From: Lytechinus pictus
Lineage: Eukaryota
DNA: 64,000 bases
Direction: 5' to 3'
Assembly (NCBI RefSeq): GCF_037042905.1
Contig: NC_087245.1
Span: 3,846,001 to 3,910,000 of the forward strand
Below, in pieces: positions 8 through 62,010 of this stretch (its first letter is position 1; each line of letters opens with the position of its first letter). The notes under the pieces were generated by a model. That model saw only the letters and a program-made list of their open reading frames with translations, was not told the origin of the DNA and did not search any database. A program made the position numbers and the translations under genes.

Positions 8-284
8 AAAGTAATCAGATGTAAACATCCCAAACCAATATGGGCCACCTTTTAGCAAACCTACCCGAGACTACCTCCAGAGGTAGTCTTGGGCAGGCCC
101 CGGCCCACTGATTCGTAAAAGGAAACATGTACCTGGAACCCGTCTCGATCTGTTTGCCAGCTGTCGCAAATTACATGTACGACATTCATGTAGCGCACAA
201 ATTTCCAGATATACACTAGGAGAGGGGAAAAGTGTAGCAAGCGAGAAGGAGAAAAAGGGGAAAAAGATTATATTAAAGTTTATA

Positions 285-1457
285 AATATTTTGTGGAAAC
301 AGTAATATATGCACATTGTCATGAATATTCATTAGGTGGGCTAATAATGTTACATCCCCACTTTTTTTTTTTATGTTATACATGAAATCATAAATGTTTC
401 ATTTTTTCTTACATGTCCTACCGCGCTCATAAAAAAAATAAGGAGAACAAAAAATCGCGCTCCTAAAAAAAAAATTGCTAAAATTTCACATTTTACATCT
501 TTAAATCCATGAAATAGCCATCTATTTTCCATAATTCCTTGAAATTATTTTTATTTTGTTGAAAACTATCAGAAAAATGAATATTCACCTCTTTCCCGAC
601 TCTGATTTGAATTTACGGTAAACTTGGTAAATATTGTAGTCCCATATATGTAGATTTTCATGGCAACACCATGGAAGTCTACATGTGGGACTACAATATT
701 TACCGAGTGTAAGTTCAAATCAGAGTCGGGAAAGAGGTGAATATTCTTCATTTTTCTGATAGTTTTCAACTAAATAAAAATAATTTCAAGGAATTATGGA
801 AAATAGATGGCCATTTCATGGATTTAAAGATGTAAAATGTGAAATTTAGCATTTTTTAATTTAATTTAATTTTTTTTAGCAGGAGCGTCATATTTTGTAA
901 ACGTATTGAGTCTTGACCCAGGCCTAGTTTCACCACAGATTAATCAATAGCTACACAGCTATTGCATATATATGATGTTTAAAAAATCTACAATTTATCA
1001 TACATGTATTGTATTGAATTGATTTGAGAGCGATTCTGAGGAGCTCAATTGAGCTCCTCAAAAAAATAAGGAGAGCGATTTATGGAGCTCCACGAAAATA
1101 TAAACGTGAAGGACTGACATGTGTAAATGATGTGTCTCTGTGATGATGAAATAAGTTGCGGCAATAAATGCACTTTTATAATCAGTTGTCAATCCAATTG
1201 TTTTAGTTCTTGGTAGAATTTTTTTTTGAATAAACCTAATTTCATATAATACAAAAGAACAAGTGGGGATATGACATCAGCGCACCTAATGAATATTCAT
1301 GATGTGTCTAGAACTGTTTCACAGGAATAATGCAAATCTATAACATCCAATAACTTCGTTATTTGTTATCTGATTTTGATCAAATTTTCAGCATTTTGCT
1401 CTGTGAATTTTACTCTATTTATTTGAACAGAAATATTTTCAGCCTGGACCATCCCTG
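285..1457. mobile_element. Fragmented Kolobok-like MITE interrupted by other repeats
   Basis: catgaatattcattaggtg...catccccact at ~320-362 is inverted relative to agtggggatatgacatc...cctaatgaatattcatg at ~1262-1301. The right part resembles the end of the 5921-6525 element. Confidence 0.5.
458..887. repeat. Near-perfect ~430-bp palindrome (foldback/MITE)
   Basis: Arms of ~200 bp (gctaaaatttcacattttacatc...tagtccca and tgggacta...gatgtaaaatgtgaaatttagc) centred on catgg-caaca-ccatg at 659-673. A diverged half copy lies at ~15142-15244. Confidence 0.9.
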
Positions 1458-2009
1458 GATTGTAACTTCAAATAAACTTGGGATACAGGTCTGTATGCAC
1501 AATTAGAGGTACATGAAACATTGTACAGTACATGTGAGGTCAAGGTCATTTAAAGTCAGACATTTCAGTTTACCTGCAAGACTTCCAGTGTGAAATCAAA
1601 CTTGGTTAGGAGTGTAATTGGGGGAAACCTCATGCACAGTAGTGATACATGTAGGTGGGCAAGTGACAATCATGTACCTTGTAATTTTTTATTATTCCTC
1701 CATTTTAAGATGTATGTAAACACACTTGCATTATGGTGTAGCCAATATCCTGAGCATGGAATTTGTCAACAAATGTGTTGAAAGGACATCATAATACAGT
1801 ATTCTGTATTATACAACACAACATAGATTCTTGACAGCTGATTGGGTGAATGCATGTCACATGACATTCAGAGGAATCAGCTGTAGAATGCCAACACATG
1901 AAAGGCGTGCAATTGACTCCTCTTGCACGCTCGAGCAAGAAAGCTGGCACGCCATGGCAGTGCAACGTAGATTCCAAACGCAATGTGTGGGCCATGGCCT
2001 GCGCCTACA

Positions 2010-3667
2010 CATACATGTACCTGCCAACCATTCCGATTTTGGCGGAATTATACCGATTTTTGGACCTCCATTCCGAATTCCGAATTTTAAAACCAAAATT
2101 CTGATTTTTGGGTTACCCGGTAATCAATTTAGTGTTGAAATTATTGAAACGGCTGTATGATGCGACTAACGCATGCACGGCTGTAAGATGCGACTAACGC
2201 ATAAACGACTGGAGCGCACGGCTACGCAAATACACAGTAAACGGCGCACAAACACTGCTAAGTGCGCAGTTCCATTGCAAATGCATGTGAAAATAACGAA
2301 CGTACACGCTATTCTTCGATGTTATCGTTGACTTCCGGAAAAAAATGGCGGCTGATATCGGCTCGCGAAAGTGCCAGCTTTTAGTGAGGACATGTTTTCA
2401 CAATCCACGAACATCGGAAAAACCGTGAAAATTTCACTTTTTTTAGACCCCTTGTTTCCTAACTACGATGTTAAGAATCACCGATGGTGATATTTTTAAT
2501 GCGAAATATGGTGATTTAGGTAAGAAGAAATCACTTTATTTGAAGTATTGCCCCATGTCGCCAGATGATTTTGTAGTGTGGGAGTGAGTTAGAGAATGTG
2601 TAGTGTACATGTCTAGAGTGTGTTGGTGATTTCAGTGGTATATTGCTTGTCTGCTGGGCTGCGCTGAAGTAATGGCCGCACACCGACGCAGTTACTCTAA
2701 CTTTTAGATCTATCCCAACGCAATTTTAACATTGATCTGTACTTTATTTTCTCAAATAATTGTCAAATTTTTGAGGAAGAAAGGAGATTTTCAACTTTTG
2801 ATCTCAATTTAGCCTTCAAAGTCAAACACCAAATCTACTTGCTTCGCTTGCCTAAACTCCCGGCGCCCGCCGAGTTGCTGCGCCTCAGCCTTCCCGTCTC
2901 GCCGGCGCACCGCAAGTGCTGTGGTGGGTGCGGGTCGGGCGCATGCAGCCGTTAGTTTCAGGTCTTTTATCATGGTTGAAAATCTGCTTTCTTATACCAA
3001 CAAACACTTATCCATTGTAGTTTATGATAGAACCTTGTCCTCGGTCAGTAACCCCTGTGTGGTGAAATAAGATTGTCAATGTTTGGCTTATTTCCTCTTG
3101 ACTTGATGCATGATTGCATTGATGATGTAGGTTGGATAAATAGATGTTTGATTTTTTGGCACATCAATTTTTAATAAAGTAGGGCTAACTTAAATCTAAA
3201 TTTATCATAAAAAATATGCCCTGGCCCAAAATTCAATTGAATTCTTGAAATAATTTTTTTTCTGATTGAAAAGAGAATCTGCATCAATCTCTTTCCACCA
3301 ATAGAGGGCCTCACAAAAATATGCTTAAAATTAAAGTTTTTGAGAGATCTGGTGAACAAGAAAAATTATTCCTTACAGATTTAGATGAAAACAAATCACA
3401 CCTGAATGAAATTAGGTGGGTTTTTGTCACAAAAGTGATATTTTAAATACCTTTTCTAAATTTGTAATTGATAAATTAAGGTCGACTACATGTAGGTCAT
3501 CCTCTGGTGTGGTAATGAGGGTAAATTTGCTTTAAAAGGTGTAGGGAAATGCTACTTTTACATGGTGTAAATGCAAAGAGTCCTTACCGTTGGAGCGGGC
3601 CGGACACCCGCTCGGTGCCGTCGTAGCTTTGATACTGATTTTTTATTATCAAAGGTTGGCAGGTATG
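2010..3667. mobile_element. Non-autonomous DNA transposon with 6-bp TSD
   Basis: TIRs CATA[CATGTA]CCTGCCAACC and GGTTGGCAGGTATG, flanked by CCTACA at 2004-2009 and 3668-3673. CpG-rich interior with no transposase ORF. Superfamily uncertain (hAT-like CA...TG ends). Confidence 0.75.
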
Positions 3668-5339
3668 CCTACATAATAATTGCATGCGCGTACCCGCATC
3701 ACTGTGTTACATACACCACGCGCAGGTAAAATGATATTAAGCAAAATCAAAGGCTAAAATTAGACCCGAGTAGGTCTTACTATACCTGTAGTCCCGTTCC
3801 TCCATCATAGGCCTAAAGTTTGATCTTTTTGTGGTTATTTGGTCAAGTTAGAGTATGCCTACAAATCATGTGTGGTATAAAACAAATATTTGATGTTTTG
3901 TCATTCGTGCAACCGTTCAAATATTGAATTTGGTGCAAGTTGAAGCAGTCCATTCTACTCCGCTTTGTGTCTTTAAGTAGACTCTTTCAACTTGCACGCT
4001 CATGTAATATTCAGAAAGATCGCGCTCATAAAAATTGAATATTTGTATGAATACAGTATACACAGTGAATTACATGTACCTGTACATGTACATGTGTATA
4101 CACTTATTCAAATTGACCCCTCCCCCATACATTCAAATTAGGTCAATGATCTTTGTAATGAAGATGGCGGTTAGTATAGCATGTATTAAAAATGTCTAAC
4201 AGCGCCCTCTTGGATCCATGGATCGATCACCTTTATTTCTCTTCACCAGTACATGTACATGTACATTTAATAATTGTGGACTGCACATATGACCTTTAAA
4301 AAGTTTGTATATTATAAGTACATGTACATGGAGCTACTCTGAAAATTAAATTTGCATTGTATTGTAGTGAATCAGTGTTGACTCAGGGAAGTTTTCTATA
4401 ATCCCTCCATGGTTCACATTACTGCAAGCATAGCAGATGTATGCTCCCGGGTTCCTGGGGTGCAGATCAGTGCCTTCTGGCTTTGTGTGCTTCCCTCATA
4501 AAACCATAGCACCAATAGCAATGCACAATTCATTGTGAGCTGTACATTCATGCATCGCCAAATTACACACATCAATCGCAGCAAAAGGGTGCATTGCATT
4601 CAAAGGGTTTGAATGTGTAATTGTGCGGTTGCAACCACATCGCACATTAGTAATTCAGCTCCCCACTACATTTATTCCATTGTGAAGTACTACAATGTAG
4701 GAACATATTCTCTATGTTCTGTATTATGCACATGTACAGTACATGTAGAATCTACATGTACATTACATCATGCGGCAATATCATCTCAACTGGTTATTCG
4801 ACACAGCAGAGCTCACCTTATTTTTTCATTCCTCATCTTCATACAATGGTAATATGGTTCCATCATCCTTCCCCTGTACATTTACATGAATCTTCTATCA
4901 GATGATAAAATTTAGCGAACTTGTAATTCTAATATATTTCTTAAGGGACCCATGTGTTATGCTTATTTTGACCCTAAAATCAGTTAGGCCTAATCATCTT
5001 TTTGTTTTATAGAAAATTACTATTAGAAATTGTCCTATTGAGGTACATGTAGTTGCTTCAAAATGGGGATAAACCAAATATAAAGAATTATAAGAGCTGA
5101 AAAGTAATCACCAGACTGGTTTATGGTCTTCCTTGTGTAGAGGGTGGGGGGGGGGGGGGGGACCAAAATGCAAAATTCACATTTAAGCACCCCAGAACAA
5201 GTTACATGTAAGTCTTACTTCAGAAAGAGTCAGTAATCCATTCAGCTAATTAATAAAATATTTTATAATTTAAAGCTAGAAAAATGATTTTCCAAAGTTA
5301 CATGTGTATTTTGGGACACAAAATGTTTTGAAGTGGACA

Positions 5340-6872
5340 CTTTTTATAATGCCCGTCCTATGGGACGTATTATGGTATCACGATCGGTGTCCGTCTGTTA
5401 GTCCGTCCGTCCATTTTCTTTGTAAACGCGATAACTTTAGTTTGACTCAACCTAGGCTCATATAATTTGGTGTGTATGATACTAGCATGTATCACAGGAG
5501 CCTAACTATTTTGAGGTCAAAGGTCACAGCGACCTGTTTTCATCTTACCCTTCTGTGGTCCTTGTCAATGGATAACTTCAGTTTAACTTAATCTACATGT
5601 ACAGTACATGTAGGCTCATATAATTTGTTGTGTATGATGCATGTACATGTACATGTAGTACAATGTAGCATGGATCCCAGGAAGCCTATTGATTTTGAGG
5701 TACAAAGGTCAAGGTCACAGTGACATGTTTTCATCTTACTCTTCTGAAGTCCTTGTAAACGTGATGACTTAAGTTTAAATTAACCTAGGCTCAACTAGCA
5801 TGGATCCCAGGTATCCTGAAGATTTTCAGTTCAAAAGGTCAAAGGTCAAGGTCACAGTGACATGCTTTCATCTTACCCTTCTGAAGTCATTGTAAATGTG
5901 ATAACTTCAAATCAACTTAAAGGTCAAGTACACCTCAGAAAAACGTAGATTTAAATCAATGTAGAAAAATCAGACAAGAATAATGCTGAAATTTTCATTG
6001 AAATCGGATGTAAAATAAGCAAGTTATGACATTTTAAAGTTTCGCTTATTTTTCACAAAATAGTTATATTCACAATTTAGTCACATGCACTTAATAAAAG
6101 AATGGATTATGTCCCTCACTCACTATTTCTTTTGTTGTTTATTGTTTGAATTATACAATATTTAATTTTTTACAGATCTCACAATAAGGACCAACTTGAT
6201 TTAACCATTAATGTTAAACAATGGCATTTCCACATGTTCAGGGAGGAATAGAACTTTGTTTGACAAGACAATGATGATAAAATTAGAATATTTTGTATTT
6301 CATATAACAAAATACAAAATAAATAGTGAGTGAGTGATGTCATCAGTTGCCTCACTTGCATACCGATCAGGATGTGCATATAACTGTTTTGTGAAATTAA
6401 GTGAAACTTAAAATTGTGACGATTCTCTTATTATACATCTGATTTTGATGAAATTTTCAGTGTTATGCTTGTTGGATTTTTCTCTTTTTATTCAAATCAA
6501 CTTTTTGTTGGAGTGGACCTGTCCTTTAACTTAGGCTCATATAATTTGGTGTGTATGATACTAGCATGGATTCCAGGAAGCCTGTTGAGTTTGAGATCAA
6601 AAGGTCAAGGTCACAGTGACATATTTTCCTCTTACCCTTCTGAAGTCCTTGGAAACGTGATAACTTTAGTTTAACTTAACCTACATATGTATGCTCATAT
6701 AATTTGGTTTTTATGATACCAGCATGGATCCCAGGAATTCTATTGATTTTGAGGTCAGAAGGTCGAAGGTCAAGTCGCCATCTTCATTTTTCTTGTTTGA
6801 CCAATATCTCAATTTTCCGCGTTACAGGCGGGCTTATTGTGCGCTCGCCCCACCCAGCGACACTTAAATGTT
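5340..6872 (+). mobile_element. Helentron-type non-autonomous element (HINE/DINE-1-like), family A
   Basis: T-run, subterminal repeat ATAATGCCCGTCC with a nearby inverted copy, (CCGT)n-like microsatellite, ~140-150 bp tandem units, and 3' GGCGGGCTTATT followed by a GC-rich hairpin-like end. Confidence 0.7.
5921..6525. mobile_element. Kolobok-like MITE with TTAA TSD
   Basis: ttaa|AGGTCAAGTACACC...GTGGACCTGTCCT|ttaa with long imperfect TIRs. Removing it restores the host unit aacttaacttaggctcat. Confidence 0.85.
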
Positions 6873-7903
6873 CATGTATGTATCAAAAGCACAAGATATA
6901 AATTACATGCATGTAGATTTTTGCTATTTCTTTCGGAATATTTAAAACTACATGTAGGCTATTAAAAAAAAACCCACCTTAAATCTCTCACTTTGAAAGG
7001 GTAATATATGGATTCTACATGTATACTCAAAAGTCAGTGTTTCCTACAGTACGTAATTGATTTTGGGGACACAAAAGTTTTAACAATCAGATCCTGAATG
7101 ATTTCTTATTTTTATCTTCAAAATCAGTTTGTCACCAATCGCTTTATATGAGAATGTATAAACTATTTTACCCCAATTCAAGGCTGTAGTCTACTGTAGT
7201 ATAATGAATTAAAAATGTCACATATTTTTGCCAGAAAGTGATAATTTCAAAATATTTTCTCATCAAATTTCAAGTATTTCTTGGACTGTGAAAAATTTTA
7301 TTTTATTTCTTTCTTTGCAAGTTAACTTGGAAAACAATTTAACTTAAACCTAGAGTGGAAATCGGGATTGTACTCTCTTAAATATGGCTTGATGAAGTTA
7401 CTAAAGGTGGTAGTTTGCTAGTGAGTTTCTTATTTATGGAAACACCCATACTTAATAAGAAAAATGAAGACCCCCATCCCCCTGCAATATGCACACTGTA
7501 TAATGTACATGATGTATGCTGTAAGCTACACATCCACAATTAAAAACAAAAAAGTGCATAATTTACATGTGTATGTGGGGTCTGTGCACTCTTCTCCAGA
7601 CAGTAAAATGTGTGTAATGCTTACCGTAATACATTTGAAGTAGGGTCCATGGAGGCTGAGCACAGATGTAAACATATACCCTGTTCTCATTACAATCCTA
7701 AAAAATAGATTACTGGAAACCAATTCAGGAAACCAGTTTGGAAGATAGCTTTGCTAGCATTCACATTTGATCACTCAAAACTGTTTTTTTTATCATGTAA
7801 AGCAGTATTGTTGCTACGGGAACACTCTCAGTCAGGGTGACAGTTTCGCGTGAAATTTGAAAGCACTCTGGCGTAGACATTCTACACAGTGTAGAGTAGC
7901 TCT

Positions 7904-8443
7904 CCCAGAACAAGTTACATGTAAGTCTTATTTCAGAAAGAGTCAGTAATCCATTCAGCTAATTAATAAAATATTTTATAATTTAAAGCTAGAAAAATGA
8001 TTTTCCAAAGTTACATGTGTATTGTTGGGACACAAAATGTTTTGAAGTGGACACTTTTTATAATGCCCGTCCTATGGGACGTATTATGGTATCACGATCG
8101 GTGTCCGTCTGTTAGTCCGTCCGTCCATTTTCTTTGTAAACGCGATAACTTTAGTTTGACTCAACCTAGGCTCATATAATTTGGTGTGTATGATACTAGC
8201 ATGTATCACAGGAGCCTAACTATTTTGAGGTCAAAGGTCACAGCGACCTGTTTTCATCTTACCCTTCTGTGGTCCTTGTCAATGGATAACTTCAGTTTAA
8301 CTTAATCTACATGTACAGTACATGTAGGCTCATATAATTTGTTGTGTATGATGCATGTACATGTACATGTAGTACAATGTAGCATGGATCCCAGGAAGCC
8401 TATTGATTTTGAGGTACAAAGGTCAAGGTCACAGTGACATGTT
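7904..8443 (+). repeat. Near-identical copy of 5191-5729
   Basis: About 540 bp with only a couple of differences seen by eye. It includes non-repeat flank plus the 5' part of HINE family A. Confidence 0.9.
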
Positions 8444-9326
8444 GGGGGTATTTGTTGAATTGCCGTCATAAATTAAAAAGTTTATGGATCTAGTTCATGA
8501 AACTTGGACATAAGAGCAATTATTATCCCTGAACATTTTGTGTGAGTTTAAGGTCACATGAGCAAGGTCAAAGGTCATTGAGGGTCAACAAACTATTTTT
8601 GAAAGTTATCGACCTGCATGTAGTGACACTTGGACATACTGTAAGGGTCTTCAGGTATTTCAGAGCATCTGTCATTCTGTATTAAACTGAAAGTTTATGG
8701 AACTAGTTCATGAAACATAGACACAAGGGTAATCTTTTATCACTGTTTTGCACAAGTCTTATACCCCTTTCATAAACCCAATTATGCGGCTAATAGCAGC
8801 ATAATTTGGTCGTAAAATCGAGGACCAGAGTTATCCGCATTATTTTGATGCTGCAATTATCCGCATAATAGCGGCATCGGAACCAGATTTTGACTTTATG
8901 AACGCAATCCAAAGTAATGCGGATAATTGCCATGGTGCGGTCACAAGGTCACCCTTTTCCAACACAACCGCATCGGAGGGGGTGTTTGCCGTTGCCATGA
9001 CGATTATCCGCCTTTTTTCAGGAAGGGCGCTCGTAAAAATAGTGCGGATTATTTTCGGAGTTTGTGAACGCAATTTTTATTGAATTATCCGCATTACTCT
9101 TACTTCTTAGGCGGCTAATTGGAGGATGGGTTTATGAAAGGGGTATTAGGTCACATGCTTAAGGTCAAAGGTCATTTTGGGTCAATGAACATAGTATTTT
9201 ATTATCATATGAATGTTTTCTTTTGTGAATATTTATTCAATAGTTGTTTACTTGTTTTCAAAGTGAGCACTGCTGCTATATTGAATTATGTAATTCAGGC
9301 GAGTCTGCCACAGGCGACCCACTTGA
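8444..9326 (+). mobile_element. 5'-truncated HINE family C copy
   Basis: Same units and 3' end (caggcgagtctgcca...ccacttg) as 31395-32096. Confidence 0.7.
8762..9145. mobile_element. PIF/Harbinger-like MITE with TTA TSD
   Basis: tta|TACCCCTTTCATAAACCC...GGGTTTATGAAAGGGGTA|tta. The empty site matches the paralogous HINE sequence at ~31910. Confidence 0.85.
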
Positions 9327-11904
9327 TATTTTCTAGGGGCATATTTTTTTACATACAATATAGTGGCTATTTTGAAGGCCACTATTTTTTGAAGTGCTAT
9401 TTTGTGCTCTACTTACTATTGTATAAAAATTACATTTGACCTGCAAGACAATTTTTCACACTGAGATGTGCATAGACCTACAGTGTATACAACTGTAAGT
9501 GTACAGTATGTAGTTAATGAGAGGAAGGTGAAAAAGGAGAACAAGTTTCTTTTTGTCTCGCCCACCAGAAGTGAAGGCGAGACTTACATGTACTTGTACT
9601 TTTTATTTTAGGGAGCCACTTTGAAAAAAAAAATGAGAGCCATTTTTCATTTTACCAATTACATTGTTTATTTAATTGCTATTTATTTTTTCTTCATTGT
9701 TATTAATTTATTGTTGTTCATTTACATGTAGATCTAATGTTTATTGTTTGTATCTCATATTAGATTACCTGGACGTTCTAACTTATACAATTTTGTCCAT
9801 CAAATTTAATAGGCTGAAGTTTATGTAATTTGAACAGAATTTGTTTTCAGAGGAATCCTTTTCATAATTACTTTTTGATAAAAACTCACTTGAAAATTAT
9901 TTATGAAATATTGAATGCATCACAGCCTGATAGCTAACGTCAACATGTCAACTATTTCTCAAGCTATGCTATGCCTACGCCAGCGCAGCCACTGAACACA
10001 GCACAGCTCTCATTCAATCGTCACCGCAACACACAGCTCAAAGTCGATCATCACCGCAACACAGCGGGTATGAAACTACATTAGTGCCAATACATGTAAT
10101 ACACTCAGGCACTGACTGTTACCAAAAATCCCCACTGAAAATCCTAATTTCGGTCTTCTGCGCCATATTTCCAGAGCACCAAGTGGCTTTATAGTTCAGA
10201 TTAAAGAAGTGAAGTCGCCTAAAATAAAAAAAAACTGATTTTCTTCAGAGTTTACGATCTTATTTTCTTGCAAATTTAGGATGGTATCTTCAAAATTAAT
10301 CCAATAAAAAAGGATTTTTTTTACTATCTGATTTAGGGCGAGACCTGGTGCCGGTGCTTTGAAAAATATCTGGGATATCGAGAGTTTGAAACTTGATACG
10401 CATTTTTTCTGAAGCACCGTGCCCGTGATTCTAAAAAAATCCACTCATTTACACGTTGGAACGCGACGATGTATGAAAGTAAACACTGCGGCTGCGCTGG
10501 CCTGGCTGTCTGACTGCTAATATTCAGTCATCAACGGGAGACTTGATGGGCGCGGACGGGAGCGATTTTCATGTTGGGAGTCGCTCGGTACTTGGCAGTT
10601 TTAGGCAGTTGCGAGAGCGATTCCAAAGCACACGAGGGCGGAATCGCTCCCATCTATTTTCAACCCTGTTGTACATGTAGCCTACCATGTCCATGTAGGC
10701 TGTTGTCTATACATGTAGATTCAAATTTAAGCTAAACCCACTGCACAGCCAACTTGTATAAAGATGTAAATAGTGAAAAATCATACAATCCTGTGTACAT
10801 GTACATTGTATGTACATGTACTATTATTATGAAAATGTTGTAATTTTTTTTTAACTCATGCTAGTAAGAGAAGTTATATGCTGTCACAAGCAATGGGATG
10901 GCTAATGTATGGTTCCATGAGCCTAATTACAACAGGAAGGCTAAAGATATTCGTTCGACCTAACCCATTCGAATTTTTTTCAATTTAATATTGCTGTTTG
11001 ACAAAAGTGTATGAATATAATTGAAAATCTAACACTGATTCTAGAAATGGTAACTACTGAACTTCGTTTGCCCAAATTGGGAAGATATATCAATGACTTT
11101 GGAACTATTTTTTGACTGGCGGAAGAATTAGAGCTATTTTACTGTTTCAGTTGATAAATTTGATCCCATCATATTTATCTTCATAAATGGCGATTTATTT
11201 TTAAAATGAGCTGGCTACGATACCCTTCTATGTTCAGATATGGAATGTCAGATATACATGTATATCCTATCCGTACATGTAGTAAACATTCGACCCTCTA
11301 ATTTCACATTTATTTTTTATGAATTTTTCAAAAGTGCCATTTTAACGCACAAGTCTATGGGGAATGTTTTATGCGCGTGACACCATTTGGGTATCTCTAG
11401 AAACTGAACAACCCCCTCTTTGTCAGGTTCTTGCCCAACTAGATCTGTGTGGGATGTGCCCTTTTGCTTTTTGGTTGATGAACACTTAAGAGTGCAAGAG
11501 AGTGGAGGTAAAGACCAAACAGGATCAGTGTGCAAATTATCGCAGGAAATTGGTGTCTGACAAGAAGAGAACTCTCCAGACTCTGTCTCATGAGAAATTA
11601 AAGATACATGTATGCGTACATAATGAGCCTTACAGTATTCCATATTATCAGGGGCTAATCCAGTTTCGCCAATAGTGGGGGCCAGAAAATGTTTTCATCC
11701 TTATTTTTCCTGATTGGTCGCTTAAATCTGATGTGTATTGTTATTATTTTTTTAGGGGGCTAGTCCTACGTGTATAAAGACTAGTATTCTTGAAAATGAT
11801 ATAGGCATTGATGTTGAGGCCTTTAGTAATGTGAGCGTGAAGCATGAGCTATTTTTGTTTTCTTCCTCCTATCTTTCCTCTTCTGTTATCTCCTCTCCCT
11901 ACTT

Positions 11905-16657: not shown

Positions 16658-16819
16658 ACCAATGCCGCCAAGTTCCGCAGAGAGGACCATGTAACATGCA
16701 GGAGAAGCGTTTCTTCTATAATCTCACAAGTTCTAGCTGTCAGGAATTCATCTATGGAGGCTGTGATGGCAATGACAACCGTTTTATGGATTCAGAATCC
16801 TGCATGGATGCATGTAAAG
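16658..16819 (+). CDS. BPTI/Kunitz domain exon (phase 1-1), putative juxtamembrane exon of the ALK4/5/7 receptor
   Basis: Encodes (D)QCRQVPQRGPCNMQEKRFFYNLTSSSCQEFIYGGCDGNDNRFMDSESCMDACK, with six Cys at exact BPTI spacing plus FxYGGC and GNxNxF motifs. Preceded by a pyrimidine tract and ctAG (16621-16657), followed by G|GTAACT. Length 162 nt, in frame with the TM exon. A weaker in-phase acceptor exists at 16600/16601. Confidence 0.85.
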
Positions 16820-21985: not shown

Positions 21986-22053
21986 GTAAAATAATAAAAA
22001 ATATTCTGGAAAGAAAATAAACCATGGAAGATATAGGAATAACATACAGCAGA

Positions 22054-43677: not shown

Positions 43678-43718
43678 ATGCCGCTTTCTTTTGAAAGACG
43701 TTGGAGCTTGGATAGAAG
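43678..43718 (+). CDS. Putative first coding exon of an unidentified downstream gene (MPLSFERRWSLDR...)
   Basis: aaaATGccg with A at -3, 13 open codons plus AG, then AG|GTAATT donor. No downstream exon could be confirmed. Confidence 0.4.
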
Positions 43719-44933: not shown

Positions 44934-44989
44934 ATAGAGAGTGAGAGTTGGGAAGAAAATGACAAATTTTGACGCATAATGAAGAAAAC

Positions 44990-45381
44990 CTGGTTTATTA
45001 TTCATTTTTTAAACGAGAGTTTAAATGCATTTGAATTTTAAGCTGTAGTTTTCTTCATGTTTTAATAGTGTATTAATGGAAACCATCAATTTAGGAGCAA
45101 CTGCTTTGGTTTCCAACTGTAATGTTACAATATTTTCTTTATTTGATCCAACGAGCTTTCATAGTTCATGTAATGTATGAACGGCTGGTTTATTATTCAT
45201 TTTTTAAACGAGAGTTTAAATGCATTTGAATTTTAAGCTGTAGTTTTCTTCATGTTTTAATAGTGTATTAATGGAAACCATCAATTTAGGAGCAACTGCT
45301 TTGGTTTCCAACTGTTATGTTACAATATTTTTTTTATTTGATCCAACGAGCTTTCATAGTTCATGTAATGTATGAACGGCT
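44990..45381 (+). repeat. Tandem duplication, ~195 bp x2
   Basis: ctggtttattattcattttttaaacgagag...aatgtatgaa(a)cgg is repeated almost identically. Confidence 0.9.
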
Positions 45382-47641: not shown

Positions 47642-47803
47642 CAGGGGCCACGGAAATGGGGGGGGGGGGGGGGCTGCACTTTTTCCAAAACCATGTACAA
47701 AAACATAAAAATGACCATCTGATCATGATTTATTGCATGGTTAGCCCCCCACTTTTGGTTCAGCCTCCCCCCCCCCATTTTCAAATCTGTTTCATGGCCC
47801 CTG
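47642..47803. mobile_element. Small hAT-like MITE with 5-bp TSD
   Basis: tattg|CAGGGGCCACGGAA...TTCATGGCCCCTG|tattg with internal poly-G and poly-C. It lies inside a decayed Kolobok-like element (~47300-48058). Confidence 0.7.
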
Positions 47804-50800: not shown

Positions 50801-50907
50801 ATATATGGGGAAGCAACATGTACTTGCATATGACATCACAAATAAAAAAATAAAATTCTATTTCTAATAACTTGATAGTATTTTATGGATTTTCCTCAAA
50901 CCTTTAA

Positions 50908-51970
50908 AGGAGAATGAAACTCTTGGAGCAAGTTAGCTTTTGTGAAAGCAGAAAAATCAAATCTAATAAGATCAACAAAAGTTTGAGTAAAATAGGACTA
51001 CATGTAGCAATAGAAGAGTTATGAGCATTTGAATGTCGAGATCACTAATGCTATGGAGATCCTCCCATTGGCAATGCGACCAAGATCTATGATGTCACTA
51101 GGTGGTTTCAGACCGCCTCGAAGTTCGCCAGTTCCAGGTATTCTCTGATCGGGAAATTTACCCCGATCAGAAAATACCAGGTATTTTGGCGGTGTGAAAG
51201 CAAACTACGCGTAATATCCCCGAAAGAAAATACCCGATAAATAGTAGGTACTTGGCGAAATTACGAGAACTTTCGCGGGGATTTTTCCAAGGTCGTGGGT
51301 ATTTTGGCGGTCTGAAAGCAAGTTACGGGAACTTTTAGCCCAGCGTGTCGTTGGGTGCGGCGCCGTGCATGGGTTGCTGCTGGGCTAGTGATTTTGAATT
51401 TCGCGCCTTGCTGCTTATCAGACCATACTGCGCATGCTCGTAACTTCAGGAACTTATCCCGAAGGGTATGTTTCAGGGCGGTGTGAATGCAGGAATAATA
51501 AAAATAAAAAAAAAAGTTCTTGTAATTTAACGGGGATTCTTGTGATCGAGGCGGTTTGAAACCACCTACTGATGAACAACTCTCCCCTTTTGGACGCTGA
51601 AAATATACCCCAAAACATCTCTTTTTGCTCATTCTAATCATATGACAAACGATTCATCAATGATATAATGTTGTGAAACCTCTGTACTTGTCCTCTCATA
51701 AAGAGAACACCTCACCTTGTGATAGACTCCATAAAAGTGAGAATATAAGTGAAATATGTACTAAAGTAATGAGGGAGTTGTACGTGTGTGACATCACTGA
51801 TCTTGGTCGCATTGCCAATGGGAGGATCTACATGGCATTAGTGATCTCAATATTCAAATGCTCATAACTTTCTTATTATTCATTCAATCTTCCTCAAACT
51901 TTCAACAATATGTTTCTTTGATTTTTCTCTTTGATATGGATTCAGCTGGTTTCAAGGGTTTCATTCTCCT
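50908..51970. mobile_element. Kolobok-like MITE, second family, TTAA TSD
   Basis: ttaa|AGGAGAATGAAAC...GTTTCATTCTCCT|ttaa with ~190-bp TIRs. Confidence 0.85.
51100..51567. mobile_element. Harbinger-like MITE nested in the Kolobok-like element
   Basis: act|AGGTGGTTTCAGACCGCCTCG...CGAGGCGGTTTGAAACCACCT|act. Confidence 0.8.
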
Positions 51971-52282
51971 TTAACAGAATTTCTTATCTTTTTGTCTGGG
52001 TGAACCCCTGTAAGGTCCTGAAGTTAGACATTTCAAGATTTCTTTGACTATTAAAAAATTCCTGCCTTGGACTGTGATGTTTTTTTTCTGAGATACAAGT
52101 TGCATGAAAAACTTGGATCTGATGTCTACAACCATATAACCAATACAGTGCAGTATTATTTAAAAAAAAATAACTTGGCTAAAAGCATTTCAATTTGGTT
52201 CTGCATAACATTTCCCATAAATCTATTCCAAATTCAGCCAAAATGATTTCTACATGTACTTTTATGATAAGGCCTACAATTT

Positions 52283-52549
52283 TAATAAGATTTGTATAGA
52301 GCAAATATCCACCTTGCTTGGTGCTCAAGGCGTTCCTATATTACCCGGCTAAGCTAGTCTACCGATTCCGGTGCGCACAGCTTTTTGAGGAATTACTTTT
52401 CTGCTGGTACCTATTTACCTCACCTGGGTTGAGTGCAGCACAATGTGGGTAAATTTCTTGCTGAAGGAAAACACGCCATGGCTTTGAATCGAGTACACAT
52501 CCTTCAGATTGAAAGACGAGAGTCTTAACCACTAGACCACGATGCCCCC
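52283..52549 (-). mobile_element. tRNA-derived SINE with L2-like tail
   Basis: The minus strand begins GGGGGCATCGTGGTCTAGTGGTTAAGAC (A box), has a central AACCCAGGTGAGGTAAATAGGTACCAG core, and ends in CGCCTTGAGCAC...GTGGAT...CTATACAAAT. Confidence 0.85.
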
Positions 52550-55500
52550 CACTTTATGTCAGAATAGAGAACAACAGACAACATAACCTTATGTTCTCTA
52601 GACGCTGTGTTTGAGAAGTAGGAACATGCTCTTTATAACCACTTGTGTTTGAACCCAATGGAATTTTTCTTTTTGACCCCAATTTAGGAACCTCCAATTT
52701 GAGATGATTTTGAGTCCTGTAGGTGGTAAATATGGAAGCATAATATGGCTGCCTCATGTTCCCCTTGCTGCTCTCACGAGAGTCATCCATTGGAATATGC
52801 AATATGAATTCAATATCTTTCCTTTTGCATGCCTAGCATGTATCAATTTGCTTTGAGAAATAGGAGTTGGAATTAAGATGAATTTTTGTGATAACTTTCA
52901 TGGCTTCAGGGGATAGCTTTTTTCCTTAGTTTTTATACATGCACAGATTGAGTGTGCATTGCATTCAGGAATTTGCCTATTGAGCAACAGATTCAGAATT
53001 TGAGAAGCAGTTGACTTTTGAGATTGAATAGGAGATGCTGATTTCTAATACATTTATTTGAAAAAAATCCTGAATTATATCAGGGAGTGTACACTTGTAC
53101 AAATGGGATTAACAAAAAAAGAAATGGTAGGCCTACACAGCCATTGTTTACTCTGCATATATTTATTTTATATTTTAAATAGATTCGATATCCTATAGGA
53201 CTATAATTAATCAAAGATATGTTTCTGATCTAGTTTAAATATCTGGTATTTCTCTGACCTTCATGAATCATCCTGGTGAGAAAGTAGCAACACTTGTTGA
53301 TCCTGTGAAATAGAACAAACCACTCATTATTTTTATGTGTTTGTGATTTGATTACTAGTATCTGTTTATTGACCCATAAAGTTGATTTAATGCCTCTCAT
53401 AAAAATCTGTATGGAAGAATACAAAGATTTGATTAAATTTTGACCTCTTTTATTTAGTTGATTGTACGTGTAGGCCTACTTCTTTTGAGGGAGTTCTCTA
53501 AAGGAAAGGTACAAATATGATGAATGAGTTGCTTTTTTTTCCTTTAAAATGGACTGGTAAAAGTGTTATTAATTTACCAATATTTAGCAAATTTCTGGCA
53601 TTCAGTATTTACTACATGTATTTCACATCTTATAAAAAGGGATAACTATTTTTTCTTTTCTTTTAACTGAAATGTAATACCAGGAATGATTAATAACAAC
53701 AGAACAAAATATACATAATGAATTAATAGATGAAATCAATATGTTTTTACAATGACTGTATCATATTCAAATGTAGATCCCTTTTGGTTTAAAAAATACA
53801 AGTATACAGGTCAGTATGCGATTGCCTTGTATACAGAGGAACAGACTGTGCATGTACTACTGTGCTTTTTTCTCTCCATTTAAAAAATGATAATTTTTCA
53901 TCAATTATCATTAGCATGGTATGCCTACATTATGGATACCGGTATTCCTCATCAGCCGAACATTCATGCCAAATTTCACTTTTTCTAACACGTGTACGCT
54001 CAAATGATGGCACAATTAAAATGAGGCTGGTATACCCAGGGTGTTAGTCACTGCTTTCATTGATGACAAATGTTTGGTCTGGTAAGGTGGGGTGCATATA
54101 GTCTTCTCATCTTCCAGAATCTGAAGTGCTTGAACTTCAGTGGTCACAGAATTTCATTGCATTTTTGTTTAATATGGGAACCTGTTCTATGGAAAAAATG
54201 GATTCATCATGGACCGATCGACCTGTCTAGACCTAACTGTAAATGTAGATGTAGGCCTATTTCATCAATTGGCATCTACTGAATGTCCAAATTTTTAAAG
54301 CCCTCCTAATAAAAAATGAATTCAATGTAAATGAAGCAATTTTCCATTTCCATGTACATGTATTCCCTTGGGAATGGGGCCCAGAGTACAGCAGTTATGT
54401 ACTAATACAGATCATCCATTAAATTTTCAATCATTTAAGTGCATCATTACGTAATCAGAACAATGCAATGTAATCAAATGCTATACTTATTGTTAGGCCT
54501 ACTAATTCTTTTAGAGCCCACTGTACAGATGTTTTGTTAGAACATATGTGAGCATTCGATTAGAGTTCACATTTATGGTAAATTAATATGTTTGATAGGC
54601 TGAAAGGAAGATTTGTATGTTGGTGGTTTAATAATGGTTGCTCATTATTCTGTAGAAAGGGGTTTGGAGAGTAGACTAGTGCTGACTCTGCGCTTGTCAA
54701 TTTGCTGTATTTTCACTGCCCAGAGCAGAAGAGAGTTGAAATCACACACACCATCCCTCCAGGCATTGTAGGGGTTAATAAAATTGAGATGCAATAAGTG
54801 GGTTTTATAGGGATTAACATGTTCAGTGCCGTCATTGAAGCTGCCTACTAAATGAGTATCGTATGATTAGATTAATATGAATTTGCATCCCAGGCTTTAA
54901 GTTGGTGAAAGGTATGAAATAAGTGAAGTAGGATCCCTTGCTTGTGATATTTCCCTTCAGGCTTTCTGGAATCCACGAGATACAGAGGAGAAAGCAGATC
55001 TGTGTTAGCAGATGGCAATGTTATATACCCTGGTAGAGTGCAAGATAGATCATGATTAACGTACAATCTACGTTATTCACATTGAGTCATTATAAATCCT
55101 CATAGTTAGCAGACAGATTTGAAAATCCATGGCGTTCTATAATGATAATGAGCTTTAAGTGTATTGCACCCCCCCCCCCATTTCTAAATTTCACAACTAT
55201 AAATTTCTGTATATTTGAAATACCATATTTTTTAAAAAATTTTGATCCTGCTGTAGGCCCTACATTATTTTTATGATTTCTTTTACTTATTCTATGTATA
55301 CAGTAGGCCTCTTTGTATCGTACTTTTGGTTTTATTTGAATTTGCAGCCATGGCATTACATGAAAGCGGAAATTTCATCAATTTTAACTATCTAATAATG
55401 ACAAATTATAGCAAGGAAATTCAGAACTACATGTACACGCAGTATGAATAGGTATCCTCAAACAAATAATAAGTTATACAACAAATTATTAAATATTTTG

Positions 55501-56774
55501 TATATTTGTTTTTACTCTAAGTGAATATCATTGTTTTCTTCAAATTCTTTTCCCTTCTGCTCCAAGCACTTTGTTTTTATATGGAGCATTCACCCATGTT
55601 AAACATTATGATATATTTTGTAATGATTATGGTTCATACAGTAATCCTACACTGTAAATTATTTGTTTTGCCACAAGGTGCATTGTGCCAGAATCAATTC
55701 AGTATAGTTTATATTTGAGATGTAATTGGATCTTGTGTCCATTCAAACTACTTCATCTCAGAGATAATTTATCATCTCGTCCCTTCTTAGGAGACATCTT
55801 AAATTGATGGATGACTTCGAGTTGAATGTCTTGACAATTATCTTTGTCATTCACCATAGAGATTGCCAATTTACCATATTTTTGGAGCCTGGCGATTTAT
55901 GTAGGCCCTATATTTCATTTTTCAGAGTGCATTATAGAGTAAAGTGGATTTGGAAACATTAACATTTATGTTGTTAACAGCATTAAACTCCATTCAAACT
56001 TTAATTGAAGGATTATTATTTTGACTCCATTATGAGAAAAAAAAATAATGCAACTTTTTCTACTAGCCTGAATTGCCTGTAAATTATTGTGTGGATACAT
56101 ATTAAATCATTAGTGAGTTCTTGTTGGTTAAAAATAATCTAAAATAAATTTTGTTCAAATTGTCATACAATGTTTACACCTCTATTTATATCCATACATG
56201 TACAAAACATGGAGATACATAGGTCTCTAGACTGCAACCTATGCGCAGTACTGTATACTTGTAATCTGTGGAAAACTAATTGTAGACCTCCATTTCCACT
56301 CATGGACGTATGTACATGTACGAGTACCAGTAGACTACGTTAAAAGTTAATACCCTCTTTAGCATTACAAAACTTTGGCACCTGTTTGCACCAAACCATA
56401 CCTCGTCTACATATTGATTGCGTTTACATCTCCCATCCATCTTTGTATATATTTTGGGACCTCTTTTCACCCCCTCATGACTATTGTCACTCTTCTATTC
56501 TCTACTTTTCAGAGCGGAAATCCTCATTGTTTGATTAGCCTGCCCCCTTGGGTGACCTTCAATATAAGAATAGATACATTCTGCACTAAGCTTATTTTAT
56601 TGTTGACGGGATCTGTCTGTTATCTTAGATTTTGTAAAGCAATAATAAATGATGTGAGCATTCTAGAAATTAGCTGAATCTAATCTGCATGAGAATTCTG
56701 TTGAACATTTCACACTCTTCAAGATTGTAAAAAAAAAGAATATGTCTAAAACATTTTACATGTTTGTAAACAGT

Positions 56775-57030
56775 TCTTGTATAGCTCATGTCTATGCACT
56801 TCCAAAGGACTTTGATTTTATTACCCTGGCTTGAGTCTGGCAGGCTTTACAATGCACAAGCATGTCAATGAATTTATTCCTGCCATGTACTGGTACCCAT
56901 TTACTTCACCTGGGTTGAGTGCAGCACAATGTGGATCATTATCTTGCTGAAGGAAATTATTCCATGGCTGGTATTTAAACCCACGACTCTGTTTCAAAGC
57001 CAAGAGTCTTATCCACTGAGCCACAGTGCT
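56775..57030 (-). mobile_element. Older copy of the same or a related tRNA-SINE
   Basis: Shares cacctgggttgagtgcagcacaatgtgg and tcttgctgaaggaaa with the 52.4 kb copy. The head TGGCTCAGTGG is on the minus strand. Confidence 0.75.
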
Positions 57031-59789
57031 CATATAGTATTGATGTTTGGGCTACATATTGTAGTACATGTACACGCAACTTCTCTTCTATCCTATCTTT
57101 TGGTTAGTTGCCCAATTCAACATCCCAAATCATTTGAGTTTGGAAAATAATTTCCAAGAATGTGCATTAGAGTACAACATTCTGATTTCGATAGCAAATT
57201 GTCTACATTAATGATTTTATGTGAGAGTCATGTCAAGATATTGATCAGTGGCTTTCATAATGTAGGTCCTTTTTTTAGACTAGACCAAGTTATAAAGGAT
57301 TGATCATAGGTGATTCAAGCCTCCAGGTTAGTCTGTGTCAGAGACTCCTTCTGTACACCTCCGGGTATTTGTAGAGTATCTGTCAGTCACTCATTCACTG
57401 TCAACTCAACTCCTCAGGTAATAATGGCCTGTTCAGATATTCTGAAACTTGAGAATTAGAAACGATTTTATGGCTATGCGGCTTGGGTATGTTCAGATAC
57501 GCCAAAATGGATTCTGTTCAATCCTTGTTTTCAGGTTATATGAATTTTGGTATATCATTCACAATATTGAACTTGCATGTGACCAAAATTCAGATCAATT
57601 AAAGCCTAATCAGGTATTCAAGAAACCAAGGATATGCAGAGGAAGAGGATTTTCTATTTTCTACAAAATGACCCTGAGATTCTTCCCCATGCTGATGTTA
57701 ATGCATTTTAAGCTGTTATGATTATGATTTATAATTAATTAGACAGCATGTAACTTGAAGAAGAGGGTTGAATCAGTAGAGTACATAGGAAACATAAGGT
57801 GCCTTGGACAAGCGAGAAAAGCAATAAAAAATTGAAAAAACTCACAATGTACAAAAAGTTCATTTTAACCCACCTTTGAACTTTATTACGTCGCTGTGCT
57901 TCATACAGTCTTTGAATTTTGTTTCTATTTGTTTTTCACATCATGTTTATAGAGTTGTATTGTTTAATCAAGCGTACAAATGTGACTGCATGACAACACC
58001 AACAAGTTGTAGGAATGCGTGTCAAACGTTGGCAAACTATTGACAATCCTGTTTAATCCCACACATGCATGACCCTGCAGCAATAAAGGTGAATCGTTAG
58101 GGTGGTGTACTCAGAAAGTGCAGGCAAACCACACACAAAAAAAATCAAAGTGATTTGAAATTTTTGATGTTTCAGTCTACTATTGTTGAAATGTGTGGAA
58201 GCAGGGAGCTGCATGTATTCCCTGGTTGAATACACATTAGGCCCTTATATTTCTGATATTTGCAGTTTATTTTCTCACAAGCAGGTGTGTTATTTTATCT
58301 GTTTATTGCAAATTTGCAATCATTTAGAAATAGCAAATGTACATTTTTCTTTCAATGTATTTTGTTCTTGAACAAACATGTAGCGTAGTTCTTGCCTCGA
58401 GCTTCTTATAGTTCTGTCACTTATAAAATTCAGACAACCAAAGATAATTGGAAATTCCATGTAAATTCTAAGCTTGAATATTTATGCTAACAACTCATGC
58501 TACATACCATTTCATAACTTCAACGCGGTTGAACATGAGACTTATGAATAATTAACCACAAAGTTTTGAGGGGCCCAAATATGGTATATGGGGCAAATTT
58601 TGCAAAAGATTTTAATATAATATATAGAAACTGATATCATATTTCATCCTTTTTCCTTTCTTTATTTTAGTTTTATCCCCCCCCCCACCCATTTGATCGT
58701 GAAGGTTAAGTGTCCACCCCAATCTATGCGCAAGTGATGGCAAACTATCCATTTTAAATGTTAACATCAGATTGTACAATACATCCACATGAAGGTTCCT
58801 AAAATGGCCTATTGATTTTATACCACATCCTACTGCAAGGAAACCCCATAAAGTTTATCAGAATAGGTTCCCTAGACCATTTTGTCTACAGATACATTTC
58901 ATCACTCAAGCTATTTATCAATTATCTCTTTACCTTGGTCTTTCACAGATCACAATACCCTGTAGGCTTGAGCAAACATTTCAGGTTATTGAACCCCTTG
59001 AATCCCTCAGAACTGCAGTATGATGAGAGACATACATTCATTATTTTGGTTTCTATTTTTTTTATTTTGATTATTATTTTATTTTATTTATTATTTTTAT
59101 TATTCATTTTTTCTTTGAGGGGGGGGGGGGGGCTGCTTATATAGTGACACAACATTTTTCCTGAAAAAAATCTGGTCTTATCTCAGAGGGCATATCCTAG
59201 GGTTAGAGTAAAATGTGTAATAGAGTTTTTGGTTCAGAATAATGTAAAGATAAGGATAGGGGTTTAATTAGCTTTAATATGGAGGTTGGATTTTATGTTT
59301 GGCTATTAAAATGTGCAGAGAAAGTCTCTTCTGTAGGCCTATAATGCTAGGATGCTATGATATCATGTTGCTATTCAGCTAAAGCGGCATGACATGTAAT
59401 CATTCACTGGGGACCTAGTTGACAAAGAGCAGGAACTCTAGAGACATCTTAGCTTTATTGCATACGTGAGCTGATGTAGCAGTGGAATAATAAGTTCTCT
59501 TCATGAAGAAAGTTAAGAGTCTTAAAACTTTTTTTCATGAACTGAACTTTACCCTGCTTCAAGAGTGAACAAAATGATGGAGTACTGTCTACTTCTATGT
59601 AGGTTCTTTCACACCTATTCAAATAAGAAAAAATCTTGGTATTTTGCCAGTGTAAAAAAAGCAATAGCAAAACACTTTCTGTGTTAAGTTGGAATAGTTT
59701 TTCAAAATTCAAGGTTGTATTGATTTTTGCAGTATGAATGCAAATTACAAGGACTCTTGATGTACAATGTAACAAGTAGACCTGTCTAA

Positions 59790-60609
59790 GGCAGTGTTTA
59801 TGCTTCCACTTTTCAGGCCAGAATCAGCGTTTCCATACGTGATTAGTCCAAAACACGGTTGCGTCCATGCTTACTTTCATTTAAATGACGTTTCAAAACA
59901 CCGATCGTTAACTCACAAAAATGTGCGTTTGTAAACGTCGTTTGACCAGAATCAGGCTTTCTGGGGAAGTATAACAGAACCACGATCGTAAACGTGTTTA
60001 AATGACGTCATTTGGTACATGCTTCCAGTGAGACGAAAATCCGCGGGGAAATACAGTCGCATTGCTCCATGGTCGCATGTTACCTCCACGGTCGCATGTT
60101 ACCTACACGGAATTACCTCTCATCTCCCTTGATACATTTGCATGTGTGATAATTGATTTAAGTACTATCACTAGTATTACTCTTCCAATTTGTCATCACG
60201 ATGAATATTGAGGGATTTACAAAAAAAAAAGGAACATGAGTTAAAATGAGGAGACATCGCCAGATGCCCCAGTAGCACAAACAAATAGATGTGTTATTAT
60301 TAGTATGTATCCTCACCATGGTGGAAATTATATGGCTATGTCAAGTAGCTCCATGCAATTACTAAAATATCGGAAATTGTTCGATGTTGAAATAACAGTC
60401 GACGTACCTTCCCCATAACAACCCTTGGGAAAAAAAACTTTCGAAAAAGGGCGCGCCCAATTTGACCTCGCTTTCCTGCTCAACGAAAATTACGATGCGA
60501 AGCCAGCTGGAGTTTGTGATTTTGCCTCTGTAAAGTTAAGCATAAACAGCACTCCCAGGACGTTTAAAAATGCTGAATCTGTCCTCGCAATTGAAGCATA
60601 AACACACCC
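59790..60609. mobile_element. PIF/Harbinger-like MITE with TAA TSD
   Basis: taa|GGCAGTGTTTATGCTTC...GAAGCATAAACACACCC|taa. Confidence 0.8.
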
Positions 60610-60709
60610 TAAGAATGCGGGAGCACTGGTGTCTGTTCAGGCATATCTGAATCCGTGTAATGGATTATTGGATATTTTGAGGTCAAATTACAAGTTCTTG
60701 TACTTTTTA

Positions 60710-61108
60710 GGGCCGTCTGCACCATCCCGAGTTTTCAAATTAGCACGCTATTTCTGATCCGACAAATTAGCCCGATCTGAACAATCTCGAGATTATTTGC
60801 AGTGGAGACGCAATTATCGCGCTGGTTCCTAGGATTAATCTTGAGATTGCAATCCCAAGTCAAATTGGGATTATTTGCAAAATAGCGCGCTATTTTACGA
60901 ATTATTGCGCTAATTCGTAGGTGCAGACGCACTCGGGATTATTTATTCACGGCGTCATACCATAATGCATCGATGCCTCGCTAGAGCAGGAATCGCTCTT
61001 CTTGCGATGGTGGAGACGGGGTTTCTTGAATCTCGAGATTAATCGCAAAGAGGGCTGATCGGGCTAAAATCTCGAGATTGGGCAAACTCGGGATGGTGCA
61101 GCACCGCC
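60710..61108. mobile_element. PIF/Harbinger-like MITE, short internally deleted copy
   Basis: tta|GGGCCGTCTGCACCATCCCGAGTTT...AAACTCGGGATGGTGCAGCACCGCC|tta. Confidence 0.85.
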
Positions 61109-61737
61109 TTATGTGTATTTTTGTTATCAGGCAGATGTTAATACACCTTATGTCCTCACTCTCCTCCCACACTGGACTCCTTGACCTTGATTCAGAAGTT
61201 TGGATGAAGGGAAGGTGAGAAGGGAAGAGGTGAAGATGGAGGGGTGGTAGAAGGATGACAAAGGGAGTACACAAATCTACAAATTACCTCTTCGGCTCTC
61301 CCACCATATTAGGGGATTGTAAGAGGAAGAAAGACAAGAGAGATTGATGGAAAGAATTGAAAATGAGGGGATGGTAGGAAAATTATGATGGGTCTAGTGA
61401 TGGAAAGTATGACAGCTCTGAGATTCTTCCTACATGTACATGTCAACTCTTTGACATAGAAAACCAAGAAGTGGGCTGAGTATGAGGAAGGATACAGATG
61501 GAATAGACTGATGATTGAGAAGGGGTCTTGATTAAACACTCACTATTACTTTATTCTATTGCCTTCATGCTCATGTGTAGGCCTACATGTAACACATATT
61601 CTTAAATGAAAATATAGACCTAATCCTTTTATTTTGGAAAAAATGCAAAGTCCGAAAATTGGTACAAAGGGCCTTAATCACAAGGATGCAATATATGGCT
61701 CAATACTAGAATATTACATTCGAAAGTATGAAGTGCA

Positions 61738-62010
61738 GATCAGTGGAAAAATTGTAATCTTGAACTAAATTACAGAAAGGAGATTGTTCCGATTGATAGA
61801 TATTAAGGGAACTTCTTCTGTTTGCCAATAGAAATAAGATCACTGGAAAATTGTAATCTTGAACTAAAATACAAAAAGGAGATTGTTCCTATTGATAGAT
61901 ATTATTATTAAGGGATCTTCTGCTGTTTGCCAATAGAAAGAAGATCACTGGAAAAATTGTAATCTTGAACTACATGTAAAATAGCAAAAGGAGATAATTC
62001 CTATTGATAA
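61738..62010 (+). repeat. ~100-105 bp tandem repeat, about 2.7 units
   Basis: gatca(g/c)tggaaaa(a)ttgtaatcttgaacta...aaaggaga recurs at ~61738, 61838 and 61943. Confidence 0.85.

Follow-up and report, generated by a model that had tools for sequence, protein, structure and literature searches.

Abundant TACATGTA insertions at TA dinucleotides in Lytechinus pictus DNA, a probable footprint of Tc1/mariner-type excision

Introduction

Cut-and-paste transposons of the Tc1/mariner type insert at TA dinucleotides and can leave a few letters behind when they depart. We describe here a 64,000-nt stretch of DNA from the sea urchin Lytechinus pictus (contig NC_087245.1, positions 3,846,001 to 3,910,000 of the forward strand; the whole stretch is called the window), animal DNA of about 36% G+C in which the word TACATGTA recurs as an insertion at TA. 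The footprint itself is already known from Tc1; what is new is how densely and uniformly it occurs, and how it stacks, in a natural genome. Excisions are usually close to invisible, and past cut-and-paste activity is gauged from surviving copies alone. A scar that can be counted and dated would let any pair of haplotypes yield rates of excision, the preference for targets, and the outcomes of repair in the germline.

In Caenorhabditis elegans, excision of Tc1 produces non-complementary 2-nt 3' overhangs (PMC4490562, excerpt). Among germline revertants of unc-22(st192), the product TA-CA-TG-TA (class L) accounts for 24 of 103 in wild-type, 10 of 36 in lig-4, and 3 of 39 in polq-1 (PMC4490562, Supplementary Data 3), in an assay that detects in-frame products only. 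The sea urchin scars would share with this system the 2-nt 3' overhangs and the net gain of six letters, and precise restoration leaves no trace. In contrast, the word is one of 26 products there, whereas here it occurs about once per kb and dominates the excess of words of the form TA-x-TA. Natural excisions detected across 45 C. elegans isolates number fewer than 10 (PMC4490562, excerpt).

The canonical footprints of Sleeping Beauty are TACAGTA and TACTGTA (PMC6943129 and PMC8151067, excerpts). These have the same architecture of TA, terminal bases, and TA, and in the window the word is enriched about two-fold and stacks with TACATGTA; they differ in their 3-nt stagger and gain of five letters, and form a minor class here. 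In rice, natural excisions of DNA transposons were clean in 8 of 94 cases and diverse in outcome (PMC4423477, excerpt). As in rice, excision scars would act as a natural source of small insertions and deletions (indels), but here a single word recurs. The identical word is also known from Phytophthora as motif AM-20, which is bound by PsMyb37 and is the most prevalent motif in effector promoters; it is read there as a binding site, and the excerpt makes no mention of an origin by insertion (PMC11134190). Closer to home, PMC9777934 (excerpt) lists an intact, TA-flanked Sleeping Beauty-like Tc1 element, with its TA duplication, for Lytechinus variegatus.

No paper on a genome-wide excess of TACATGTA as a footprint was among the matches listed in a full-text search, outside which subscription journals mostly lie. 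A 2010 report, which may be relevant to the local footprint, is said to treat the excision of Tc1/mariner elements in embryos of sea urchins. The excerpts of PMC520745, PMC2872659, and PMC11361634 contain nothing on the word as a natural footprint.

Abundance and distribution of the word

TACATGTA is the top-ranked 8-mer by count in the window, with 75 exact copies between 172 and 61978 (no strand assigned). Five of these are second copies within a 540-bp duplicate (7904..8443, no strand assigned; 99.6% identical to 5191-5729, 2.7 kb apart), and their exclusion leaves 70 independent sites. The duplication itself appears to be very recent. Base composition predicts 2.2 copies and 100 dinucleotide shuffles give a mean of 1.86 (maximum 9; none attains 75). 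An initial annotation, made by a model from the letters alone, had counted more than 60 copies by eye against about two to three expected; the full count, set against expectations of 1.9 to 3.8, bears this out, and the Markov background that it had proposed gives, within the window and at order 2, 75 against 3.8. The excess is thus 20- to 40-fold, depending on whether the Markov model or the shuffles are used. Both this excess and the insertion nature of the word are real.

The same annotation had described the non-coding DNA as saturated with the word, which overstates its spread: density varies eight-fold and one zone is empty. There are 44 sites in 1-18700 (2.4 per kb), 4 in 18701-33612 (0.3 per kb), none in 33613-39000, 5 in 39001-47800, and 17 in 47801-62000 (1.2 per kb), and the unevenness is significant across 4-kb bins (chi2 39.8, p 5e-4). 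The empty zone (28710..39140, about 10 kb, no strand assigned) holds the last exons, introns, and putative 3' untranslated region (UTR) of the gene for a TGF-beta type I receptor kinase and has no scars against 10.5 expected, though it was picked post hoc from the data. Exons had been described as scar-free and the putative 3' UTR as sparse in scars. Coding frames (2163 bp) indeed carry no copy, but with 2.0 expected this is not significant (P 0.14); the putative 3' UTR does fall in the empty zone, but the introns there are equally empty. Other trends are weak, with 7 sites against 13.5 expected in the spans of young elements (p 0.049) and 6 against 6.7 in paralog-covered bases. A relation between scar density and CpG depletion was considered and rejected, as the densest part has a CpG ratio of 0.58 and the empty part 0.24, with no correspondence at window scale.

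Insertion at TA

A usable comparison, whether with tandem units, terminal arms, paralogs, or homologous proteins, is available for 11 of the 70 independent sites. Seven are insertions at a TA and are flanked by TA on both sides, two are suggestive, one is unclear (14639, where the comparison is ambiguous), and one shows no gain of six letters. The cleanest case is 61971..61978 (no strand assigned for this or the following sites), where the third unit of a tandem array has six letters more than the other two units. At 2012..2019, the scar lies in the left of the two terminal arms of an element of 1.65 kb. This arm is CATA-CATGTA-CCTGCCAACC; its right counterpart (about 3653-3666), in the inward direction, is CATA-CCTGCCAACC, though the two have just 14 letters in common. 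At 13728..13735, the scar adds two in-frame codons to a dead Penelope-type retrotransposon. The two extra residues stand opposite gaps in 99% and 100% (70-71 of 71) of the aligned Penelope proteins, an independent outgroup; these 71 are the ones that extend far enough upstream among 150 returned. All three examples had been singled out in the initial annotation and hold on closer comparison, as does its claim that the word is an insertion at TA. The element at 2012 spans 2008-3666, has ends CATAC...GTATG and a 6-bp CCTACA repeat on both flanks, and encloses a CpG-rich stretch at about 2150-3000.

Some targets have been hit more than once. Three scars, CATGTA+CAGTA+CATGTA, are stacked at one TA of a dispersed repeat at 5594..5612 for a gain of 17 letters, and the paralogous units at 5417 and 5750 have a plain TA. 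The same TA in another unit of this repeat carries a separate insertion of eight letters (TACATATGTA, 6682..6691); given this independent event, it is a reused target. A cluster at 5644-5667 (feature span 5638..5667) adds 25 letters at two neighbouring TAs and would parse as three CATGTA plus one CAATGTA, a parse that requires two substitutions. The two suggestive sites are 50999..51006, in one arm of an inverted repeat with a net gain of six over the other arm, and 47861, in a decayed repeat copy (47861..47903) with sites at 47861 and 47896; 47861 likewise gains a net six letters, and both alignments are degenerate.

The emptied targets at 13728, 61971, and 5594 have no CATG within 20 letters, although the one at 2012 does. 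The insert is therefore constant and mostly not copied from its flanks; at those sites this tells against an origin by slippage, by template switching, or from flank hairpins. Footprints of hAT or other flank-hairpin transposons with P nucleotides would be inverted copies of the flank; instead, the insert is the same throughout and is missing from the flanks at these three positions.

These comparisons also bear on two explanations that involve no insertion. Decay of CpG in TACGTGTA, TACACGTA, or TACGCGTA could in principle produce the word, and the window is CpG-depleted (observed/expected 0.48). Yet TACGTGTA and TACACGTA together occur just 3 times and TACGCGTA once, against 75 copies of TACATGTA, even though about half of CpGs survive; the precursors are almost absent, so the explanation fails, and decay is in any case incapable of adding six letters. 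CpG decay alone, a possibility that the initial annotation had itself raised, is accordingly disfavoured and can be regarded as extremely improbable. It is also very unlikely that selection keeps the word as a protein-binding site, or that a host system maintains it as a highly iterated palindrome. PsMyb37 does bind the same word as AM-20 in Phytophthora (PMC11134190, excerpt), but in the window it originates by insertion rather than substitution and stacks with other words; copies lie in dead repeats and in a dead retrotransposon, and none in the 10-kb zone where constraint is likeliest. An HIP1-like palindrome would arise by substitution and be kept in functional DNA; what is found is insertions, copies in dead repeats, and none in coding frames.

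Sister words, stacking, and target context

Other words of the TA-x-TA form are also in excess. TAGGCCTA, the runner-up among all such words, occurs 15 times against 0.47 expected, and TAGGGCCTA/TAGGCCCTA 5 times against 0.2 after masking, with two of the five in one repeat. Together these form a second scar class (3808..61585, no strand assigned), of which none is polarised by a paralog. Minor classes (1524..59771, no strand assigned) were counted after masking: TACAGTA/TACTGTA, the Sleeping Beauty-type word that the initial annotation had rightly mentioned, reaches 24 against 11-12 expected, and TACAATGTA/TACATTGTA reaches 7 against 1.6-1.8. No enrichment was found after masking for TACGTA or TAGGCTA. 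One idea is that CAT ends with a 3-base stagger would give TACAATGTA and GGC ends TAGGGCCTA; this fits the counts, among them 0 of TAGGACCTA and 3 of TACAGTGTA against 0.8 expected, but the numbers are too small. TACCGGTA is present at 34325 and 53937, 2 copies against 0.1-0.2 expected, and is perhaps a third scar class from CC ends.

The words tend to stack. Nine of 118 runs of TA plus scar units are compound, against 1.6 expected under random placement of events on TAs, and none of 20000 simulations attains nine. Several of these mix word types that share TAs, such as TAGGCCTACATGTA at 16199..16212 (no strand assigned), with a second copy at 61578-61591. As some stacks are of mixed type, they could not have been made by slippage.

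Tc1 and Sleeping Beauty prefer targets with A at -3 and T at +3. At +1 the emptied targets in the window favour C or G, at +2 a purine, at +3 T, and at +6 A. The frequency of T at +3 or A at -3 is 0.51 against 0.32 (p 9e-6), though +1 is C/G and not T and decayed neighbouring scars could mimic this signal. The leading half-site TA|CAT occurs 17 times against 3.8 expected; it is what a scar presents, and decayed older scars would match it too.

Excision by Tc1/mariner-type transposons

We consider TACATGTA to be, probably, the excision footprint of TA-targeting Tc1/mariner-type transposons with 5'-CA ends. The points counted for this are the excess, the polarity of insertion at TA, the absent local template, the co-enriched TA-x-TA words, the stacking, and identity with class L; the initial annotation had matched the word to Tc1, and Supplementary Data 3 of PMC4490562 agrees. 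The Tc1 element listed for L. variegatus and, subject to the caveats given above, the bias to T at +3 or A at -3 also count in its favour. The maker of the scars and the repair route are inferred as follows. Insertion of an element would duplicate TA, and excision would cut the non-transferred strand two bases inside, leaving TA-CA at each broken end; both steps are established knowledge (for the second, PMC4490562, Fig. 1 legend, and PMC6943129, excerpts). Germline repair would then join the ends with both overhangs retained, giving TA-CA-TG-TA and a net gain of six, a product documented in C. elegans. Preferred TAs would be struck repeatedly, which may account for the stacks seen in the window, and other ends or a 3-base stagger would give the sister words: TAGGCCTA from GG ends and TACAGTA from CAG with three bases. 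Being near-neutral, the six-letter scars would outlast departed elements in non-coding DNA; scars that persist in this way after element loss would greatly outnumber elements.

Several observations weigh against excision. No transposase was found among the 148 most protein-like of the window's 495 frames, and the window holds no complete TA-duplicating element with CA ends, in line with the earlier remark that no Tc1/mariner element is evident. TACATA/TATGTA, the partial footprints commonly left behind, show no enrichment after masking (71 against 64-69 expected). Site 47896 is a counter-example, as it has no gain of six relative to paralogs. Repair after excision is also much more varied in C. 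elegans germ cells and in rice than here (PMC4490562 and PMC4423477, excerpts). Among the indels listed against sequencing runs (12 of 233), none lies at a scar and all lie in high-copy repeats, and neither a six-letter polymorphism nor an occupied allele was seen. In addition, two MITEs (miniature inverted-repeat transposable elements) that might have been TA-flanked, 8762-9145 and 51099-51568, were set aside because paralog lengths fit TTA and ACT 3-bp duplications better. Finally, purine-pyrimidine alternation continues for at least four letters at 27 of 67 sites, whereas 616 of 4819 background TAs show it (odds ratio 4.6, p 2e-8), and another CATG lies within 20 letters at 28 of 67 sites, against 22% of background TAs.

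The alternation favours replication slippage or template switching in alternating TA/CA/TG tracts, which would make and perfect the palindrome with no transposon involved. Further favour comes from metagenome contigs retrieved with a triple-word pattern, where the word lies mainly inside such microsatellites. However, 40 of the 67 sites have no alternating tract, the polarised sites 13728, 61971, and 5594 have no nearby template, and slippage of TACATG is unable to give TAGGCCTA or mixed stacks. Alternating flanks are equally predicted by decayed older scars and by the target preference of Tc1 and Sleeping Beauty. An insert copied from adjacent sequence, as slippage would leave, is not seen at the polarised single sites and is possible for TACATGTACATGTA doublets and some of the 27 tract sites. 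As a general explanation slippage is unlikely, but part of the site set may owe something to it.

A transposase product could also have arisen by a route other than classical insertion followed by excision, namely abortive integration, immediate re-excision, or the activity of a different superfamily that targets TA and has CA ends. Examples are those animal CMC/EnSpm families that duplicate TA. The same product is predicted, and this route would explain both the absence of matching elements from the window and the repeated hits on one TA. Flank-hairpin superfamilies, though, leave flank-dependent scars (for Tol2, PMC8151067, excerpt), while the insert here is constant, and the exact word is documented for Tc1. 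We therefore rate this route as fairly unlikely, and excision of Tc1/mariner-type elements remains the preferred reading.

Three observations on elements touch this subject. A lone TA|CAGGG start lies at 63463..63490 on the forward strand, resembling what we take to be a Tc1/mariner-type end; it has no partner end in the window. The MITE at 8762-9145 has ends TACCCC...GGGGTA and a TTA duplication and sits in a dispersed repeat. That at 51099-51568 has ends AGGTGG...CCACCT and probably an ACT duplication, and is nested in an inverted-repeat element (50905-51973).

Age of the scars and their share of indels

Contigs from 4 of the 12 listed sequencing runs were compared with 8450-19130, and high-copy repeats dominate the alignments. 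Site 11605 is retained in both runs of one organism (A), with no window letters missing, so some scars predate the split. Other pieces from this organism miss 17-45 window letters, which is compatible with scars being either present or absent. Pieces from a second organism (B) include 12 distinct scar sites in stretches missing fewer than six letters, though the source sample is possibly among the runs. Site 18618 was considered as an occupied allele, as both pieces from organism A end there, and was rejected, since a fragment resembling a long interspersed nuclear element (LINE) seems to start at that point. This fragment (18628-19993, forward strand) appears by eye to be the 3' part of a LINE, presumably of the L2/CR1 type, and adjoins the scar at its start; it is interrupted by MITEs with TTAA flanks at 18772 and by a tandem duplication of 361 bp, and has no Pfam match.

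There are 78 one-mismatch variants of TACATGTA against 52-57 expected, and this excess roughly suggests a mean scar age of 0.04-0.05 substitutions per site. About one scar per 40-50 substitutions would follow, a real yet minor mutational input. Between repeat copies in the window, one of nine six-letter gaps is a TACATGTA-type insertion, and about 5 events among 141 gaps involve scar words. The initial annotation had linked the scars to massive cut-and-paste activity with the effect of a small-indel mutator; they are a real input, but their weight was overstated, as their share of indels is small.

A broader proposal may be put forward tentatively. In sea urchins and several other lineages, repair of Tc1/mariner breaks may be so uniform, and turnover so high, as to leave about a million identical scars in a genome. 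Each would improve its TA as a target, such that scars breed scars, and would seed purine-pyrimidine microsatellites and be open to co-option as a binding site. If so, TACATGTA in Phytophthora may be a co-opted scar, and the spectrum of TA-x-TA words would serve as a dated ledger of extinct transposon families and germline end-joining. A practical caution is that regulatory studies of these animals will pick up TACATGTA and TAGGCCTA as spurious 'enriched motifs'.

Genomic context and metagenome contigs

The window contains exons that encode a TGF-beta type I receptor kinase, a frame with a Kunitz domain, a broken Penelope-type retrotransposon, many MITEs, and tandem arrays. The Penelope remnant comprises a reverse transcriptase frame (12379-13608, minus strand) and a GIY-YIG frame (12242-12547). 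Its nearest named protein relative is 55% identical and comes from L. variegatus, also the species of the Tc1 element listed above. Upstream of the receptor exons for the transmembrane, GS, and kinase parts (21709-33612, forward strand) is the Kunitz/BPTI frame (16495-16845, forward strand), with a Pfam E of 5e-18. A 53-unit GAT microsatellite (30733-30940, forward strand) reads as a long acidic stretch that continues in frame into the kinase exon; it is probably intronic. A large inverted-repeat element with 232-nt arms (93%) spans 60709-63336, with a related nested pair at 60974-62592 and a tandem array inside.

Metagenomes were scanned with a 23-letter repeat from the window, without a match, and triple-word scans returned 119 loci from metagenomes and 3 from viruses, of which none resembles the window. 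These loci are mostly TA/CA/TG microsatellites with an indel spectrum of slippage noise. Nine eukaryote-like contigs (L004, L028, L030, L048, L052, L059, L069, L071, and L104) have in common a 135-bp TA-flanked MITE with CAGGGTGGCG ends. This MITE reads TA|CAGGG...CCCTG|TA, and thus a TA|CAGGGTGG end occurs in loci unrelated to the window; all that follows is that elements and words of these kinds occur together in another organism. A further genome with several TA-x-TA classes is represented by L073:1-10005, which has 38 TACATGTA, 16 TACCGGTA, and 3 TAGGCCTA in 10 kb. The entire contig L005:1-3616 is a perfect palindrome, probably an assembly artefact.

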